DNA of 9,135 nt from a virus (Duplodnaviria; Heunggongvirae; Uroviricota; Caudoviricetes). Location of the stretch: the IMG/VR virus record IMGVR_UViG_2627853765_000006, positions 1 to 9,135 of that record; one strand, written 5' to 3'. Positions 1,931 to 9,135 of the stretch are shown piece after piece. Below the pieces are notes generated by a model. The model saw nothing but the letters and a program-made list of their open reading frames with translations. It did no database searches and was not told the origin of the DNA. A program made the translations under genes and the position numbers. The first letter of the stretch is position 1. Each line of letters starts with the position of its first letter.

Positions 1931-1973
1931 TGAGGTGTACTGGCAATAGCGGACACTACCATTTGTTCTTTTT

Positions 1974-2792
1974 TTAAGCAGCCATCTGATGATATTTTTC
2001 CCTGAAGGCTGCCGGGGAGATATTCCCCAGACGAGAGTGACGACGCTGACGATTGTAGAAAATCTCAATGTATTCCCGTATTACTGAGATGGCTTCATCC
2101 CGGTTATTAAAACGATAGTGGCTCAGGCTCTCATTTTTCAGCGTTCCCCAGAAGCTTTCCATCGGAGCGTTGTCGTAACAGTGACCTTTACGCGACATTG
2201 ATGTTTTCAGACCAGACTGCTCCTGTATGACCCGGTAATCGTATGCGCAGTACTGTGAACCTCGATCAGAGTGGTGGATTAGCCCGGCAGGTGGGCGCTG
2301 GCTCCTGAGCGCCATAAACAGGGCTTTACCTGTCAGCTCTTTTGTCATGCGCTCTCCCATGGCGTAGCCGACAATTTCGCACGTATAAACATCTTTGATG
2401 CCAGCGAGGTACAACCATCCCTCCTGTGTGGCAACATACGTCAGGTCCGCCACCCAGACCTGATTTGGTGCTGTAGGAGCGAACGTCTGGTTCAGCAGAT
2501 TTGGCGCAACTGGCAGATTGTGGTTCGGGTTCGTAGTCGCTCTGAACTTGCGTTTCTGCTTACAGCGTAGCCTTAGCTCCTTACGAAGACGTGCCAGTCG
2601 GTCACGACCAACGATGATGCCATTCTCTGCCAGCTCCGTCTGGAGCCGCCGGGTTCCATATGTTTCGCGAGTGCGGATATGTGCCACCTTAATCTCCAGT
2701 TTTAGCCGCTCATCACTTTGTTTTCTGTCTGAGGGTTCATGCTGTACCCAGTTGTAATAACCGCTCCTGGATACACCAAATACCTGACACAT
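1974..2792 (-). CDS. IS3-family transposase OrfB (IS600-like), DDE domain; probably expressed as an OrfAB fusion by -1 frameshift
   Basis: 272-aa ORF with integrase-core motifs (…HSDRGSQY…, …[17 protein letters not shown]…) typical of IS3-family OrfB; lies downstream of orfA inside the IS. Confidence 0.85.
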
Positions 2793-2827
2793 CGCTTCAA
2801 TGGGAAATTGTTGTCGCCATTGTTCGA

Positions 2828-3130
2828 TTAACGCGTATTTTTCAGCGACTCCTGTGCAAAATACGCTGTTGCTTTTTTTAATATATCTCGCTCAAGGCGA
2901 GCTTCATTTAACGCCTTACGCAGTTGCAGAATTTCAGATTCCAGTTCAGCCACCGTGCGGGAACCAGGAGTACCGAGCCCTTTTCTGGCGGCGGTAACCC
3001 ATTGTCCTAAAGTGCCTTCAGGAAGGGATAATCGGGAAGCGCCTTCACTGATCGAAAGTTGATTTTCAAGAACCGTTCTGACAGCTTCGGCTTTGAACTC
3101 TTTAGAGTAACGTTGGTTTTTTCTGCTCAT
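2828..3130 (-). CDS. IS3-family transposase OrfA (IS600-like), HTH and leucine-zipper
   Basis: 100-aa ORF MSRKNQRYSKEFKAEAVRTVLENQLSISEGASRLSLPEGTLGQWV… matching IS600 OrfA as I recall it; positioned at the IRL-proximal end of the IS. Confidence 0.85.
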   Translation of the reverse strand: MSRKNQRYSKEFKAEAVRTVLENQLSISEGASRLSLPEGTLGQWVTAARKGLGTPGSRTVAELESEILQLRKALNEARLERDILKKATAYFAQESLKNTR

Positions 3131-3194
3131 TATTAGCTCCTTCTGATGCCATTCTATTTCAGGAAGGAGTGTCCGTTAAACTCAGGCTACCTCA

Positions 3195-3434
3195 GCGGTT
3201 ACCCTGGCGACGCGCCTTACGCGTTAACCAGCCTTCTGCTTCCAGCCGTGCGATAGCCGTTCTGACGGTACTCATCCCCGCGCCAATCTGACGGGCAATG
3301 GTTTCAATTGATGGCCAGCACACACCTTCGTCATTACTGAAATCAGCCAGGCGGGCCATAATTGCCACGCTGGATAACTTCATGCCTGATGCAGCGCAAC
3401 CATCCCATACATAGCCGGTTAATTTAGTGCTCAT
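3195..3434 (-). pseudogene. lambdoid replication-initiation protein (O-like), N-terminal winged-helix fragment, truncated by IS600
   Basis: 80 codons (MSTKLTGYVWDGCAASGMKLSSVAIMARLADFSNDEGVCWPSIETIARQIGAGMSTVRTAIARLEAEGWL…) with the C-W-P-S…IA…G-S-RTV…AI..LE..GWL pattern of HTH_36-type N-domains of phage replication initiators. The frame runs into the IS600 end, which supplies the stop (3192-3194). Confidence 0.6.
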
Positions 3435-3443
3435 GACCGACCT

Positions 3444-3782
3444 CTATTTCCCTGAATTTACGACGAAACTGTTCGAGCGGACTGAAGCATTCATGCTCAT
3501 AACCTCCGCGGAGGTAGATAACCCGCTGTGTTTCCGGCTCCCAACGAATGACTCTGACGGGCACTCCGTAGTGATCTTTGAACCAGCGGTTAACTTGTCG
3601 CAAAGGACTGTCTCCTTCTGCCGGTTGAAATCACCCACAGCCCACTCTGCAAAGCTGTGGGTTACAATTTCCCTGTCACCTGGTACATTCACTGCATAGC
3701 AATATTTCACCTTCGCTTTTCCACCCGGTACAGAAAGCGCAATCAGTTGCGAGCGACGGTAGTGTGTTGTTAAACTGTTCAT
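3444..3782 (-). CDS. hypothetical prophage protein, probably frameshifted (protein-like continuation in the -1 frame to 3424)
   Basis: 112-aa ORF whose ATG (3780-3782) overlaps the stop of the upstream CII-like gene (ATGA). Its C-terminal half is Ser-rich and low-complexity, whereas the -1 frame over 3424..3630 reads …[64 protein letters not shown]. Confidence 0.4.
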
Positions 3783-4348
3783 GCGTTAGTTTCTCCACAA
3801 CCAGAAGCAATCGACGCCACGACGCCCGGAGCTGCACACTCGCGGGCGTCATTACTTTCTGAAATGCAAAAAATTTTGTAGACAAGTGCTGCATGCTCCT
3901 GCAGCTTCGAAATTGAGAGATACAGCTCGTCGTTAATTGCTGTCTTCTCATGCGGTTCCACTACACCGTCTTCGATTGCTGAACGAATCTGTTTTGAATA
4001 ACTGCCGATCTGTTCAATGACTTCCAGCAGACGCTGGTTAATATCGGCGTTGTCCACATCCTCGATGTCAGGAAGAGACACAAAGACGCCATTTGCAGAC
4101 TGCGCCACAGCATCAGCAATGAAGTGAGTGCCACCAGCACGCTGTAAAACCATTGCCCATCCCAGCGGGAAAATCTGATCGCCATCTGCACGAAGGCGGT
4201 TGAATAAAGCGTTTTCTGTTACATCGAGCCAGTCAGCCGCTTCAGCGTAACCACCCGGCAACTTTGCGATAGTTTTTCTGACAGCTTTCACGTACCACTC
4301 AGGCTGTTTTTCTATTTTCCAGTGATGCTTACCCACGATTAGCCTCAT
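3779..4348 (-). CDS. phage regulatory protein, CII-like (YdaT-type) downstream of cro
   Basis: 189-aa ORF directly downstream of the Cro-like gene on the same strand, with an N-terminal HTH-like segment ([27 protein letters not shown]). Position and size fit the YdaS/YdaT (Cro/CII-analogue) pair of Rac-type prophages; family assignment is from memory. Confidence 0.55.
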
Positions 4349-4379
4349 CGTTCTGTGGTTAAAAATTGAAAGTGTTCTG

Positions 4380-4580
4380 CTAATCTTTCGGATAGATATC
4401 CGGTCTTAAGTCAGATTTCGTAATTGCACCTGACGTGCATTGCTCAAGTTTTTTAGCCAGCACAAAACTGGCTTTTTTATAGCCATTGAAAACCAGCCGT
4501 AAGTAGCCTTGTGTTGAGCCAACTTTTCCGGCCAACTCACCCTGCTGTTCTTTGGTTAAAGAGTCCCAATACGCTTTCAT
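4380..4580 (-). CDS. Cro-like HTH regulator (YdaS-like)
   Basis: Preferred start is the ATG at 4578-4580, preceded by GGAGG about 10 nt upstream; the longer ORF-track version (to 4883) runs antisense through cI. The 66-aa product MKAYWDSLTKEQQGELAGKVGSTQGYLRLVFNGYKKASFVLAKKLEQCTSGAITKSDLRPDIYPKD has an HTH and the C-terminal RPD(I/V) motif of YdaS-type Cro proteins; divergent from cI. Confidence 0.65.
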   Translation of the reverse strand: MKAYWDSLTKEQQGELAGKVGSTQGYLRLVFNGYKKASFVLAKKLEQCTSGAITKSDLRPDIYPKD

Positions 4581-4583
4581 ACA

Positions 4584-4656
4584 ATATGTACCTCCAGCGT
4601 ACATATTACATGATTGAAATGAACCTTCACGATACTTGTACCTTAGCGGTACAAGG
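4584..4656. promoter_or_regulatory. OR-like operator/promoter region: two 23-bp palindromic operators (9-5-9) between divergent cI and cro
   Basis: O1 4584-4606 ATATGTACC-tccag-CGTACATAT and O2 4634-4656 ACTTGTACC-ttagc-GGTACAAGG; half-site consensus A(T/C)(A/T)TGTACC; centres 50 bp apart. O1 overlaps a minus-strand TAATAT -10 upstream of cro; O2 overlaps a TTGTAC -35-like element, with TTTAAT (4658-4663) just before the cI ATG, suggesting a leaderless cI transcript. Confidence 0.5.
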
Positions 4657-4670
4657 GTTTTAATTTCGTT

Positions 4671-5345
4671 ATGAAAACAATCCATGACATCCGGCGGTCT
4701 AACGCCAGAAAACTGAGAGATGGTGTTGGCGGGAATTCTTCCTTTGCCACTATGATTGATCGCGAGCCAACCCAGACCAGCAGGTTTATGGGAGATGGTG
4801 CTACTAAAAATATCGGTGACAGCATGGCACGACACATTGAAAAATGTTTCGACCTGCCTATCGGATGGCTCGATCAAGAACACCAGACAACGAACATCAC
4901 AAAAAAACCTGATGTTTCAATCACTAACAAACAAATAACGTTAGTCCCTGTCATATCATGGGTACAGGCCGGAGCATGGAAAGAAGTTGGCTATTCTGAG
5001 GTTGATTTGAGCACAGCAGAAACTTATCCCTGCCCTGTACCCTGTGGCGAAATGACTTATATCTTGCGGGTGATTGGTGATTCAATGATTGATGAGTACC
5101 GTCCGGGAGACATGATTTTTGTTGATCCTGAAGTCCCTGCTTGCCACGGTGACGACGTTATTGCGTTGATGCACGATACAGGCGAAACCACCTTCAAGCG
5201 ATTGATAGAAGATGGAACACAGCGTTATCTCAAAGCATTACACCCAAACTGGCCTGAGCCCTACATTAAGATTAACGGTAATTGCTCTATAATTGGCACT
5301 GTGATTTTCTCGGGAAAACCAAGAAGATACAAAATAAAGGCCTAA
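4671..5345 (+). CDS. CI-like phage repressor with C-terminal S24 (LexA-type) autopeptidase domain
   Basis: 224-aa ORF with an N-terminal HTH-like region (…IGDSMARHIEKCFDLPIGWLD) and a C-terminal S24 domain carrying the Ser (GDSM) and Lys (TFKRL) dyad; divergent from the cro-like gene across the operators. Confidence 0.85.
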   Translation: MKTIHDIRRSNARKLRDGVGGNSSFATMIDREPTQTSRFMGDGATKNIGDSMARHIEKCFDLPIGWLDQEHQTTNITKKPDVSITNKQITLVPVISWVQAGAWKEVGYSEVDLSTAETYPCPVPCGEMTYILRVIGDSMIDEYRPGDMIFVDPEVPACHGDDVIALMHDTGETTFKRLIEDGTQRYLKALHPNWPEPYIKINGNCSIIGTVIFSGKPRRYKIKA

Positions 5346-5357
5346 TCAATATTTATG

Positions 5358-5380
5358 AACCTGCTTCGGCAGGTTTTTTT
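5358..5380 (+). terminator. intrinsic (rho-independent) terminator downstream of cI
   Basis: AACCTGC-TTCG-GCAGGTT hairpin (7-bp stem, UUCG tetraloop) followed by a run of 7 T, 13 bp after the cI stop. Confidence 0.75.
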
Positions 5381-5381
5381 A

Positions 5382-5418
5382 TACATTGACAATGTACCCC
5401 ATGGACACACAATGTACC
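5382..5418 (+). promoter_or_regulatory. putative PL/OL-like region: operator-like repeats overlapping a -35 TTGACA
   Basis: Palindrome TACATTGACAATGTA (5382-5396) and two direct copies of ACAATGTACC (5389-5398, 5409-5418, 20 bp apart) sharing the TGTACC core of the OR half-sites; TTGACA at 5386-5391 with a weak -10 CACAAT (5408-5413) after a 16-bp spacer. Confidence 0.3.
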
Positions 5419-5518
5419 AAAACGAAACAACAAACAGGCAGGATGCCCACGAAGTAGCCGCCTGGGGCATATGAAGTCCAAGATGATTCGTTAGCAACAA
5501 AACGCCCATAGGACGCTT

Positions 5519-5531
5519 CGCTCTTTAACAA
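5519..5531 (+). promoter_or_regulatory. boxA-like antitermination motif (rrn/nut type)
   Basis: CGCTCTTTAACAA on the + strand about 100 nt downstream of the putative PL; matches the boxA consensus (rrn TGCTCTTTAACAA; lambda nut CGCTCTTA). Flanked by the inverted repeat GACGCT (5512-5517) / AGCGTC (5545-5550). Confidence 0.45.
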
Positions 5532-5835
5532 TTTGAATATTTTCAGCGTCAATGATCTGTTTAGCTCCCTACAAGTAAATGTAGCGTAGCACCATGATAA
5601 ATCCTGCTAGTGTTTAGTTAAAAATCGCGCGAGAGCAAGAACGATGTGAGGGCAGGCAATACTGATAGTGTTATTGCTATTAGTTTATCAAAAATATTTA
5701 GACGACCCAGATGAATATTTTTAATACATACTCCCCCTAATTTAACAGGAGTAAATGTTGATGAATAACGAGACATCTATACTCAACAATTGTATGATAT
5801 GAACAATTATATAACATAATGTAGGAAAAATAAAA

Positions 5836-5970
5836 ATGGATTGGCATGACCTTATATCAAAGGTAATTATCGGACTTGTTACAGGCTCAATCGCAGCTTA
5901 CTTAACTGCGCGATATGCACTCGGCCGTTATTATAAAGAAAAATGGTGGGACAAAAGAATAGATTTGTAG
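5836..5970 (+). CDS. small predicted membrane protein (44 aa), possibly truncated by IS1
   Basis: ATG at 5836 preceded by AGGA about 9 nt upstream; MDWHDLISKVIIGLVTGSIAAYLTARYALGRYYKEKWWDKRIDL has one hydrophobic helix followed by a basic/aromatic tail. The stop TAG (5968-5970) uses the first G of the IS1 terminus, so the native C-terminus is unknown. Confidence 0.3.
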   Translation: MDWHDLISKVIIGLVTGSIAAYLTARYALGRYYKEKWWDKRIDL

Positions 5971-6024
5971 GTGATGCTGCCAACTTACTGATTTAGTGTA
6001 TGATGGTGTTTTTGAGGTGCTCCA

Positions 6025-6300
6025 GTGGCTTCTGTTTCTATCAGCTGTCCCTCCTGTTCAGCTACTGACGGGGTGGTGCGTAACGGCAAAAGCACTGCCG
6101 GACATCAGCGCTATCTCTGCTCTCACTGCCGTAAAACATGGCAACTGCAGTTCACTTACACCGCTTCTCAACCCGGTACGCACCAGAAAATTATTGATAT
6201 GGCCATGAATGGCGTTGGATGCCGGGCAACTGCACGCATTATGGGCGTTAGCCTCAACACGATTTTACGTCACTTAAAAAACTCAGGCCGCAGTCGGTAA
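6025..6300 (+). CDS. insA: IS1 InsA (transposition inhibitor/DNA-binding protein)
   Basis: 91-aa ORF (GTG start) [43 protein letters not shown]… matching IS1 InsA. Confidence 0.9.
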
Positions 6301-6344
6301 CCTCGCGCATACAGCCGGGCAGTGACGTCATCGTCTGCGCGGAA

Positions 6345-6722
6345 ATGGACGAACAGTGGGGATACGTCGGGGCTAAATCGCGCCAGCGCTGGCTGTTTTA
6401 CGCGTATGACAGGCTCCGGAAGACGGTTGTTGCGCACGTATTCGGTGAACGCACTATGGCGACGCTGGGGCGTCTTATGAGCTTGCTGTCACCCTTTGAC
6501 GTGGTGATATGGATGACGGATGGCTGGCCACTGTATGAATCCCGCCTGAAGGGAAAGCTGCACGTAATCAGCAAGCGATATACGCAGCGAATTGAGCGGC
6601 ATAACCTGAATCTGAGGCAGCACCTGGCACGGCTGGGACGGAAGTCGCTGTCGTTCTCAAAATCGGTGGAGCTGCATGACAAAGTCATCGGGCATTATCT
6701 GAACATAAAACACTATCAATAA
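6345..6722 (+). CDS. insB: IS1 InsB (transposase domain; normally made as InsAB' by -1 frameshift from insA)
   Basis: ORF …[110 protein letters not shown] matching IS1 InsB. The ORF-track start is the first in-frame ATG; the true frame opens upstream within the 3' end of insA. Confidence 0.8.
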
Positions 6723-6737
6723 GTTGGAGTCATTACC

Positions 6738-7074
6738 CAGACGGCGTACCACACAGGAAAAGATCGCAATTGTTCAGCAGAGCTTTGAACCGGGGATGAC
6801 GGTCTCCCTCGTTGCCCGGCAACATGGTGTAGCAGCCAGCCAGTTATTTCTCTGGCGTAAGCAATACCAGGAAGGAAGTCTTACTGCTGTGGCCGCCGGA
6901 GAACAGGTTGTTCCTGCCTCTGAACTTGCTGCCGCCATGAAGCAGATTAAAGAACTCCAGCGCCTGCTCGGCAAGAAAACGATGGAAAATGAACTCCTCA
7001 AAGAAGCCGTTGAATATGGACGGGCAAAAAAGTGGATAGCGCACGCGCCCTTATTGCCCGGGGATGGGGAGTAA
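6738..7074 (+). pseudogene. insC: IS2 InsC (OrfA), N-terminally truncated at the IS1 junction
   Basis: …[111 protein letters not shown] matches IS2 InsC from about residue 10; the apparent TTG start at 6724 and first residues MESLP come from the IS1 terminus. Confidence 0.8.
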
Positions 7075-7937
7075 GCTTAGTCAGCCGTTGTCTCCGGGTG
7101 TCGCGTGCGCAGTTGCACGTCATTCTCAGACGAACCGATGACTGGATGGATGGCCGCCGCAGTCGTCACACTGATGATACGGATGTGCTTCTCCGTATAC
7201 ACCATGTTATCGGAGAGCTGCCCACGTATGGTTATCGTCGGGTATGGGCGCTGCTTCGCAGACAGGCAGAACTTGATGGTATGCCTGCGATCAATGCCAA
7301 ACGTGTTTACCGGATCATGCGCCAGAATGCGCTGTTGCTTGAGCGAAAACCTGCTGTACCGCCATCGAAACGGGCACATACAGGCAGAGTGGCCGTGAAA
7401 GAAAGCAATCAGCGATGGTGCTCTGACGGGTTCGAGTTCTGCTGTGATAACGGAGAGAGACTGCGTGTCACGTTCGCGCTGGACTGCTGTGATCGTGAGG
7501 CACTGCACTGGGCGGTGACTACCGGCGGCTTCAACAGTGAAACAGTACAGGACGTCATGCTGGGAGCGGTGGAACGCCGCTTCGGCAACGATCTTCCGTC
7601 GTCTCCAGTGGAGTGGCTGACGGATAATGGTTCATGCTACCGGGCTAATGAAACACGCCAGTTCGCCCGGATGTTGGGACTTGAACCGAAGAACACGGCG
7701 GTGCGGAGTCCGGAGAGTAACGGAATAGCAGAGAGCTTCGTGAAAACGATAAAGCGTGACTACATCAGTATCATGCCCAAACCAGACGGGTTAACGGCAG
7801 CAAAGAACCTTGCAGAGGCGTTCGAGCATTATAACGAATGGCATCCGCATAGTGCGCTGGGTTATCGCTCGCCACGGGAATATCTGCGGCAGCGGGCTTG
7901 TAATGGGTTAAGTGATAACAGATGTCTGGAAATATAG
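7032..7937 (+). CDS. insD: IS2 InsD (OrfB, DDE transposase domain; normally expressed as InsCD by -1 frameshift)
   Basis: 301-aa [52 protein letters not shown]… matching IS2 InsD; overlaps the 3' end of insC in the -1 frame. Confidence 0.85.
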
Positions 7938-7948
7938 GGGCAAATCCA

Positions 7949-8230
7949 GGAGCGTTCTGGCTCGTTTTGCTGATCATCGCAGGTTGGGGCGGTCTGGTCC
8001 GCTACCTGATAGATGTGAAGCAGAGTAAAGCAACGTGGAGTTGGATAAATGCTCTGGCTCAGATAGTGGTATCAGGATTCACCGGTGTTATTGGTGGCCT
8101 GATCAGCATCGAAAGTGGATTCAGTATTTACATGATTCTCGCGACAGCGGGGATTAGTGGTGCGATGGGTTCGGTTGCACTGACGTACTTCTGGGAACGA
8201 CTGACAGGGGTGAAAAATGCAAAATCTTAA
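7949..8230 (+). pseudogene. phage holin, 5'-truncated at the IS2 right end
   Basis: 93 codons with three hydrophobic segments (AFWLVLLIIAGWGGLV / WSWINALAQIVVSGFTGVIGGLI / FSIYMILATAGISGAMGSVALTYF) and a charged C-terminus; overlaps the start of the lambda R-like endolysin. The first 9 codons of the ORF-track entry (MSGNIGANP) are IS2 sequence. Confidence 0.5.
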
Positions 8231-8473
8231 TCCTCAGCGTAAAGCTTTCCTCGATATGGTGGCATGGTCAGAAGGAACGGATAACGGGCGACAACCGACA
8301 CGTAACCACGGTTATGATATTATTGTCGGTGGTGAACTCTTCACTGATTACTCCGATCACCCTCGCAAACTTGTCACGCTAAACCCCAAACTCAAATCAA
8401 CAGCTGCAGGCCGTTATCAACTTCTTTCACGCTGGTGGGATGCTTACCGCAAGCAGCTTGGGCTGAAAGACTT
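8217..8473 (+). pseudogene. lambda R-like endolysin (lytic transglycosylase), 3'-truncated by the IS911-like element after codon 86
   Basis: MQNLNPQRKAFLDMVAWSEGTDNGRQPTRNHGYDIIVGGELFTDYSDHPRKLVTLNPKLKSTAAGRYQLLSRWWDAYRKQLGLKDF is near-identical to the N-terminal half of lambda R as I recall it; similarity stops at the IS terminus TGAAGTGG (8474). Confidence 0.8.

Positions 8474-9135
<662 letters not shown>

Follow-up and report, generated by a model that had tools for sequence, protein, structure and literature searches.

Does a 44-codon open reading frame (ORF) that ends on the first base of an IS1 element, inside a decayed lambdoid prophage, encode a small membrane protein in its own right, or is it what remains of something larger? 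The question arises from a 9,135-nucleotide stretch of virus-derived DNA (IMG/VR record IMGVR_UViG_2627853765_000006), hereafter called the window, in which a sequence-only reading had picked out this ORF, together with a mini-ORF shortly upstream of it, as a small membrane-protein gene at the position of gene N. Here we compare the locus with its uninterrupted relatives, and we ask what the uninterrupted gene could encode and how both it and its surroundings are likely to be expressed.

A prophage remnant at thrW

The window starts with proA (1-1254) and the tRNA gene thrW, tRNA-Thr(CGT) (1369-1444), followed by the 3' part of a phage integrase gene on the minus strand (1459-1930), an IS3-family element (1931-3194), and a lambdoid immunity-region gene block (3195-5969). 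On the minus strand this block carries a replication-gene fragment, DUF4222, and ymfL-like and ymfT/cro-like genes, and on the plus strand a 224-aa ORF for a cI-type (LexA/S24, ymfK-like) prophage repressor (4671-5345), which is annotated as LexA family or ymfK in the syntenic E. coli loci L001 and L002. Next come IS1, a truncated IS2, and the lysis genes, represented by a holin-like and a lysozyme-like fragment, with another IS3-family transposase beyond them. The holin-like ORF (7922-8230) takes its first 9 codons from the right end of IS2, and the lysozyme-like ORF (8217-8507) overruns into the IS transposase gene on the minus strand (8482-9135), so that both lysis genes are damaged.

The prophage site is thus thrW, adjoining proA, and the prophage is of the e14/SfV-like kind, broken into fragments by four IS elements. 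Intact E. coli relatives hold the same prophage at thrW with cI and int on one strand. In the window the two are on opposite strands, so an inversion between IS copies has turned the immunity block (3195-5969) around with respect to what remains of the integrase gene (1459-1930). A contig of GCA_900457245.1 (locus L155) matches positions 2835-8970 at 99.98% identity, and the 44-aa product is attributed by its source to Shigella boydii. The surroundings of the ORF are AT-rich, as had been remarked, with a GC content of 32-38% over 5500-6000 against 42-48% in cI and the flanking phage genes and 50-59% in IS1.

A membrane-protein gene truncated by IS1

Much of what had been read from the ORF itself stands. 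Its coordinates (5836-5970, plus strand) and translation are as originally described, a plausible ribosome-binding site (AGGA, 5823-5826) lies 9 nt before the ATG, and the product has one hydrophobic helix followed by a basic and aromatic tail. The supposition that the native protein was longer also proved right, and the homologue search that had been proposed as a check recovered the uninterrupted gene with its frame conserved. Sixteen complete E. coli genomes carry the sequence of 5346-5969 without interruption at 97.4-97.6% identity, and in these genomes the gene is 198 codons long, encodes WP_001764244, and occupies the position downstream of cI. The similarity between the window and these intact loci stops exactly at 5969. 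All 134 coding bases before that point (5836-5969, codons 1-44 plus 2 nt) are identical to the start of the intact gene, found at 6490-6623 of L001, and we therefore take them to be true coding sequence, the 5' stump of a conserved gene. The remaining 463 nt of the gene (codons 45-198) were found nowhere else in the window.

The stop codon, TAG at 5968-5970, is fortuitous: its TA belongs to Tyr45 (TAT), and its G, at position 5970, is the first base of IS1, just as the sequence-only reading had seen. The description of the product as a small membrane protein, on the other hand, does not hold, since the stump amounts to 22% of a 198-aa protein with a predicted cytoplasmic four-helix bundle, and truncation at residue 44 removes that whole bundle. 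The exact 44-aa product occurs in 86 collection blocks, mostly contigs of 2-5 kb that break at IS1, and the exact junction of ORF and IS1 is absent from the complete E. coli RefSeq genomes. Judged by these alignments, the 44-codon ORF is a pseudogene stump, cut by IS1 after the second base of codon 45 in a Shigella lineage. The cell may still produce a 44-aa membrane peptide, since the stump keeps its promoter, ribosome-binding site, transmembrane (TM) helix, and juxtamembrane motif. Nothing points to a role for such a peptide, and the function of the gene is lost in the window.

The IS1 copy is 768 bp long (5970-6737, plus strand), with terminal inverted repeats, insA at 6025-6300, insB at 6345-6722, and about 95% identity to annotated IS1A copies. 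No 9-bp target duplication surrounds it, the left flank being ATAGATTTGTA and the right flank CAGACGGCG; in the test for a target-site duplication, the flanks GATTTGTA and CAGACGGCG were unlike, and the gene does not resume on the right. Directly abutting IS1 is an element without its left end (6738-7948, plus strand; ORFs 6724-7074 and 7032-7937; terminal sequence GGGGCAAATCCA at 7948), which we take to be IS2, presumably with its left ~270 bp missing. The lack of a target duplication, combined with a right flank that is internal to IS2, shows that deletion or recombination came after the insertion. IS1 inserted first, and a later IS-mediated rearrangement took codons 45-198 along with the early-left genes, leaving the present order of IS1, truncated IS2, and lysis genes.

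The early-left promoter, boxA, and a structured leader RNA

Several expression signals can be recognized between the repressor gene and the stump, all on the plus strand. The intrinsic terminator of the repressor gene (5357-5376; an 8-bp stem and a T-run), also annotated in SfV, is followed by a putative early-left promoter resembling PL (5381-5418), in which TTGACA (5386-5391) and CACAAT (5408-5413) are separated by 16 nt and match at 10 of 12 positions. Operator repeats ACAATGTACC at 20-bp spacing overlap this promoter, with a palindrome over the -35 element. About 100 nt downstream of PL lies a boxA (GCTCTTTAACAA, 5520-5531), invariant in 64 distinct copies, which we take to be equal to the rrn/lambda boxA consensus. 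No gene stands between this promoter and the 44-codon ORF, so its assignment to the early-left position of a lambdoid prophage was sound, as was the remark that exclusion genes are frequent there, given the SieB and RelA/SpoT defense genes in the corresponding slots of sibling prophages described below.

Between boxA and the gene, at 5554-5668 (plus strand), is a conserved structured leader RNA of roughly 115 nt, predicted to consist of a closing helix, P1, and three hairpins. The window carries a divergent variant whose P3 is AT-rich; canonical copies are found at 3975-4123 of L040 and 2372-2517 of L057. The structure was assessed in a MAFFT alignment of 64 distinct copies built from sequence only. 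In it, CCUGUUU pairs with GAAyGGG to close P1, and two hairpins show strong covariation, with 96.3% of cells paired compared with 37-46% when the 3' partners are slid, and compensatory changes in 11 of 20 pairs compared with 1-4 in the slid controls; none of 500 shuffles reached the observed values for pairing and covariation. The third hairpin exists in 34 sequence variants, nearly all of which fold at the same place. A search of Rfam 15 with three leader copies returned no family at E<=1 apart from noise, and nothing relevant emerged from a literature search on boxA-linked leaders in prophages.

By pattern scan, the leader block is present in 108 IMG/VR prophage contigs, with one match per locus, always located between PL and a hypervariable cargo slot. 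In the 12.6 kb of L001, which take in the rightward operon as well, the element occurs once, within the PL operon and immediately ahead of this slot. The element may be a Nus-dependent, nut- or put-like antitermination leader, allowing PL transcripts to pass the terminators of inserted cassettes. Two further loci show how the region varies. The leader copy in L049 (10455-10639) loses similarity in the middle of the third-hairpin region, which suggests a point of recombination or insertion inside the element. In SfV (L003, 4173-4469), similarity to the window stops about 147 nt past cI, before boxA, and is followed by orf33, a 98-aa ORF with its own terminator, so the SfV lineage seems to use the position downstream of cI differently.

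A cargo gene with its own promoter in a hypervariable slot

The gene also appears to have a promoter of its own. A scan combined with conservation points to a putative sigma-70 promoter at 5770-5798 on the plus strand (GAGACA, 17 nt, TATGAT). Across 7 loci whose proteins share 52-84% amino acid identity, AGACA and TAT(G/A)(A/G)T are near-invariant at a fixed spacing of 17 nt, and the spacers and flanks have diverged; hexamers that are conserved while the spacer varies, at the very place that the scan picked out, constitute a signature expected of a sigma-70 promoter.

This promoter bears directly on the upstream mini-ORF, a string of 15 codons (MLMNNETSILNNCMI*) on the plus strand. The string does exist, at positions 2 nt upstream of those originally given (5755-5802, with possible ATGs at 5755 and 5761 and a TGA at 5800-5802). 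It could in principle be translated into a leader peptide with a regulatory effect on the gene downstream: an AGGAG (5747-5751) stands 3 nt ahead of its ATG, and an ORF at the same position is kept in the E. coli, Citrobacter, and Raoultella loci. As a gene, however, the mini-ORF did not survive the conservation check. Its start, frame, and Shine-Dalgarno (SD) sequence are kept in the three closest relatives only and have disappeared from 4 of 7 diverged loci (P0004, P0005, P0007, and P0009), where no homologous start or frame is present, and in the Citrobacter locus the SD is destroyed and the ORF extends to 22 codons. Conservation within it is confined to the -35 and -10 hexamers with their 17-nt spacing, and transcripts from the 5770-5798 promoter would begin past it. 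These observations lead us to treat the mini-ORF as most likely a chance ORF that overlaps a promoter, and a regulatory leader peptide is highly improbable.

Several further features set the gene apart from its neighbors. Its GC content is 33%, compared with 42-48% in the flanking phage genes. A hairpin with a U-tract follows it in 4 of 7 loci (L001, L004, L008, and L152; none was found in the other three), in the part that is deleted in the window. In close relatives it always stands after the S24 repressor gene and on the same strand, with differing neighbors, and among otherwise syntenic prophages it may be present or absent, most sibling phages with the shared backbone lacking it. Distant members of the family lie between portal and scaffold genes (L017 and L018), in Mu-like prophages of Vreelandella among Mor, endolysin, holin, and gp27 genes (L033 and L036), or next to integrases or transposases. 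The conserved promoter, the low GC content, the patchy presence, and the unrelated positions, all read from sequence, strongly support the view that the intact gene is a single-gene moron. It had been suggested that the early-left ORF might be a kil-type gene or occupy the place of N; our comparison shows it instead to be a variable cargo gene with a putative promoter of its own, neither kil-like nor an analog of N.

The slot that the gene occupies is a hotspot for such cargo. It extends from 150 to 1400 nt downstream of boxA in loci L041-L148, corresponding to 5670-6900 of the window before the IS1 event, and across 91 loci the 1.4 kb after the leader contains 54 protein clusters; past it, the common backbone resumes with a 54-aa ORF, YfdP, and YfdQ/DUF2303. 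Among 37 cluster representatives that were scanned, SieB was found in 2 and a RelA/SpoT protein in 1, the other cargo comprising Rha/Ash, HNH, PD-(D/E)XK/DUF2800, and Nmad5 proteins, along with many of unknown function. In PADLOC the RelA/SpoT protein corresponds to PDC-S33 (3e-90); it is the cargo that follows the boxA leader in sibling E. coli prophages L040, L067, L104, and L108. An anti-phage action of fused RelA/SpoT toxin-antitoxins has been proven for those of E. coli prophages (PMC9712102), and sieB is one of four prophage-expressed systems of P22 that interfere with superinfection (PMC10883804). With a recognized anti-phage annotation in 3 of the 37 scanned clusters, guilt by association is weak. 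The slot does have some anti-phage content, and this association is the ground on which we consider a function for the intact gene.

A predicted single-pass membrane protein with a helical bundle

Close homologs of the intact protein are 195-201 aa long, share 52-99% identity, and come from E. coli, Citrobacter, Raoultella, and metagenomes, and a profile search of 1.84 billion representatives extended the family to 369 clusters at E<=1e-3, nearly all of about 150-200 aa. An alignment of 72 members shows an N-terminal hydrophobic helix, a juxtamembrane motif, and a helical domain that ends in AK-x-(D/E)LK. The motif, (R/K)(F/Y)Y-x-EKWW(E/D)K(K/R), is of the RYYKEKWWDKR type, and W38 is invariant among the 72 members. 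In 70 of the 72, more Lys and Arg residues occur in the 15 residues after the hydrophobic helix than in those before it (means 4.1 and 0.4), which by the positive-inside rule would place the bundle in the cytoplasm; a candidate second hydrophobic segment was seen in 1 of the 72. AlphaFold2, run with the 72-sequence alignment, gave a model with a pLDDT of 90.3 in which one helix spans residues 3-70, running unbroken through the TM segment, the motif, and the first bundle helix, and is followed by three more helices, with lower confidence (pLDDT about 60) over the C-terminal ~30 residues. Topology and model together strongly support the prediction of a single-pass inner-membrane protein oriented N-out/C-in, whose short acidic N-terminus lies outside the cell and whose four-helix bundle is cytoplasmic.

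Database searches attach little to this protein by way of function. The one family match was PHROG 17948 ("unknown function"; E=6e-95 over residues 1-185). Pfam and NCBIfam contain no family for the protein or its 72 relatives, and PADLOC-DB v2 has none for the protein, with scattered matches at E values of at least 7e-4 among the 72 members. A sequence-profile search of the PDB gave nothing credible, and comparison with solved and viral structures matched generic helical bundles only. Conserved residues of a catalytic kind are absent from the bundle, there is no evident partner gene, and literature searches on WP_001764244 and PHROG 17948 returned nothing relevant. A scan of GTDB with the alignment of close homologs found no relative, and one with a 19-member alignment found 25 loci. 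Some distant homologs are on MAG contigs without obvious phage genes, and the records of distant members P0011 and P0018 are contigs of only 1-2 kb.

What the intact gene may do, and what the truncated products may not

The most likely role of the intact gene product is that of a prophage exclusion or abortive-infection protein, made in the lysogen and acting at the inner membrane, an assignment by association that we put forward tentatively and with somewhat less than even confidence. In a lysogen, where PL is repressed, the intact gene would be expressed from its own promoter, and the protein would protect the lysogen against superinfecting phages at the inner membrane. It might do so by blocking genome entry, in the manner of SieA, Imm, or gp15, or else the bundle might sense a product of infection and oligomerized TM helices might permeabilize the membrane, an abortive infection of the RexB or SieB kind. 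For the explanation as a whole, that is, an IS1-made stump of a moron-borne membrane protein with an inferred anti-phage role, we lean slightly toward its being correct.

The proposal has to be weighed against other uses for a membrane protein carried by a prophage. If the gene were a lysogenic-conversion or housekeeping factor, concerned with membrane stress, the envelope, or the control of induction, the stump would still be a pseudogene, and the absence of any match in defense databases, the generic fold, and a slot whose cargo is mostly of unknown function would all be in keeping with this. On the other hand, SieB and PDC-S33/RelA-SpoT genes share the slot, and fast turnover among siblings, together with unrelated positions in unrelated prophages, is the typical pattern of defense cargo; we consider such a factor unlikely, though not to be dismissed lightly. 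The Vreelandella Mu-like prophages, in which the homolog is found among Mor, endolysin, holin, and gp27 genes, could instead suggest a role in the lytic cycle, as a lysis or holin accessory or as a membrane anchor for some phage process, not expressed in lysogens, and an N-terminal TM segment followed by a helical domain is superficially like that of i-spanins. Identification as an i-spanin was rejected, however, since the predicted N-out/C-in topology is opposite to theirs. A lytic role is also difficult to reconcile with a position that varies, from after cI in enterobacterial lambdoids to between portal and scaffold in L017 and L018, with a putative promoter of the gene's own and a terminator hairpin in 4 of 7 loci, and with the absence of the gene from most sibling phages with the same backbone, and it strikes us as distinctly improbable.

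Finally, selection might act on the short product itself. An independent nonsense allele of the same gene, C139T (Q47*), gives a 46-aa product and is present in IMG/VR loci L048 (6012-6327, minus strand) and L146 (3932-4528), with copies also at 3001-3141 of L163/L164. The Q47* allele occurs in 493 collection blocks, compared with 86 that carry the IS1 allele; the 493 include two complete chromosomes, CP026731 and CP026811 (4.4 and 4.7 Mb), where it lies within IS-rich prophage remnants. The two truncation points almost coincide (46 and 44 aa), and a functional small membrane protein, whether toxin-like or a dominant-negative decoy, would explain two nearly identical products, would account for a stump with its promoter, ribosome-binding site, TM helix, and motif intact, and might be read into a weak similarity to the Ldr type I toxins (E=0.014, 15.9 bits). 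Yet there are just two events, each in an IS-ridden, decaying prophage remnant, where pseudogenes are the rule; the high block counts of both alleles reflect clonal sampling; the Ldr score is well under the 27-bit cutoff; the stop codon of the stump is an accident of the IS1 sequence; and outside the truncated lineages the family is uniformly 150-200 aa long. A selected short peptide is thus very unlikely, and we regard the two independent truncations as decay in IS-laden genomes.

Implications

The finding itself is an ordinary one, a prophage gene truncated by IS1, and the unannotated protein family and the leader RNA are the parts of more value. What looked like a small membrane protein with a leader ORF can be set aside as a false lead, formed by a pseudogene stump of IS1's making and a promoter. 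The protein family is unannotated and widespread, and it sits in a slot that elsewhere holds proven or recognized anti-phage genes, which makes it a candidate for phage challenge. The leader, present in more than 100 enterobacterial prophage contigs, is a possible landmark for mining defense cargo and may help explain how the distal early genes of prophages stay expressible when insertions bring in terminators.

Comparison with known systems

The stump, taken alone, is like the Ldr type I toxins (PF13940) in its short length (44 aa), its one TM helix, and its charged and aromatic tail. Membership in that family was rejected on score (the stump scores 15.9 bits and the full-length protein 11.8 bits, against the gathering cutoff of 27 bits), and the stump differs in that it derives from the truncation of a larger gene, with no antisense RNA evident.

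Among the proteins that prophages use against superinfection, SieB of lambda and P22 (PF14163) is like the intact gene product in size (~180-200 aa), N-terminal membrane anchoring, early-left location, and possession of its own promoter, and SieB homologs sit in the same cargo slot of sibling prophages, but on the opposite strand. Kinship with SieB was rejected, with no match at E<=1, none among the 72 members, and an hhalign probability of 1.8%; the protein described here, unlike SieB, has one TM helix and a four-helix bundle. The genome-entry blockers HK97 gp15, P22 SieA, and T4 Imm likewise resemble it as membrane-anchored, moron-style single genes expressed from the prophage, but no homology to them was detected, and the bulk of the protein here is predicted to be cytoplasmic. 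CapRel-type fused toxin-antitoxins (PDC-S33) are another single-gene prophage defense (PMC9712102) in the same slot, but they are unrelated soluble enzymes that have the genomic address alone in common with it.

The order of PL, boxA, and first ORF matches the PL-nutL-N order of lambda. An N-type antiterminator was rejected as the identity of the gene product, which begins with an acidic N-terminus (MDWHDL) that leads into a TM helix and has no arginine-rich motif; in contrast to N, the gene here would be dispensable cargo with its own promoter. If the TM-EKWW-bundle family were an unrecognized single-gene membrane anti-phage system and the boxA-linked RNA a new processive-antitermination leader, a conjunction that we hold to be doubtful, then the leader would enable transcription from PL to continue past the terminators of any defense cassette that fills the hotspot. 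In its build this leader differs clearly from nutL of lambda, for it is a multi-hairpin element of ~115 nt that occurs once per prophage and not a 15-nt boxB.
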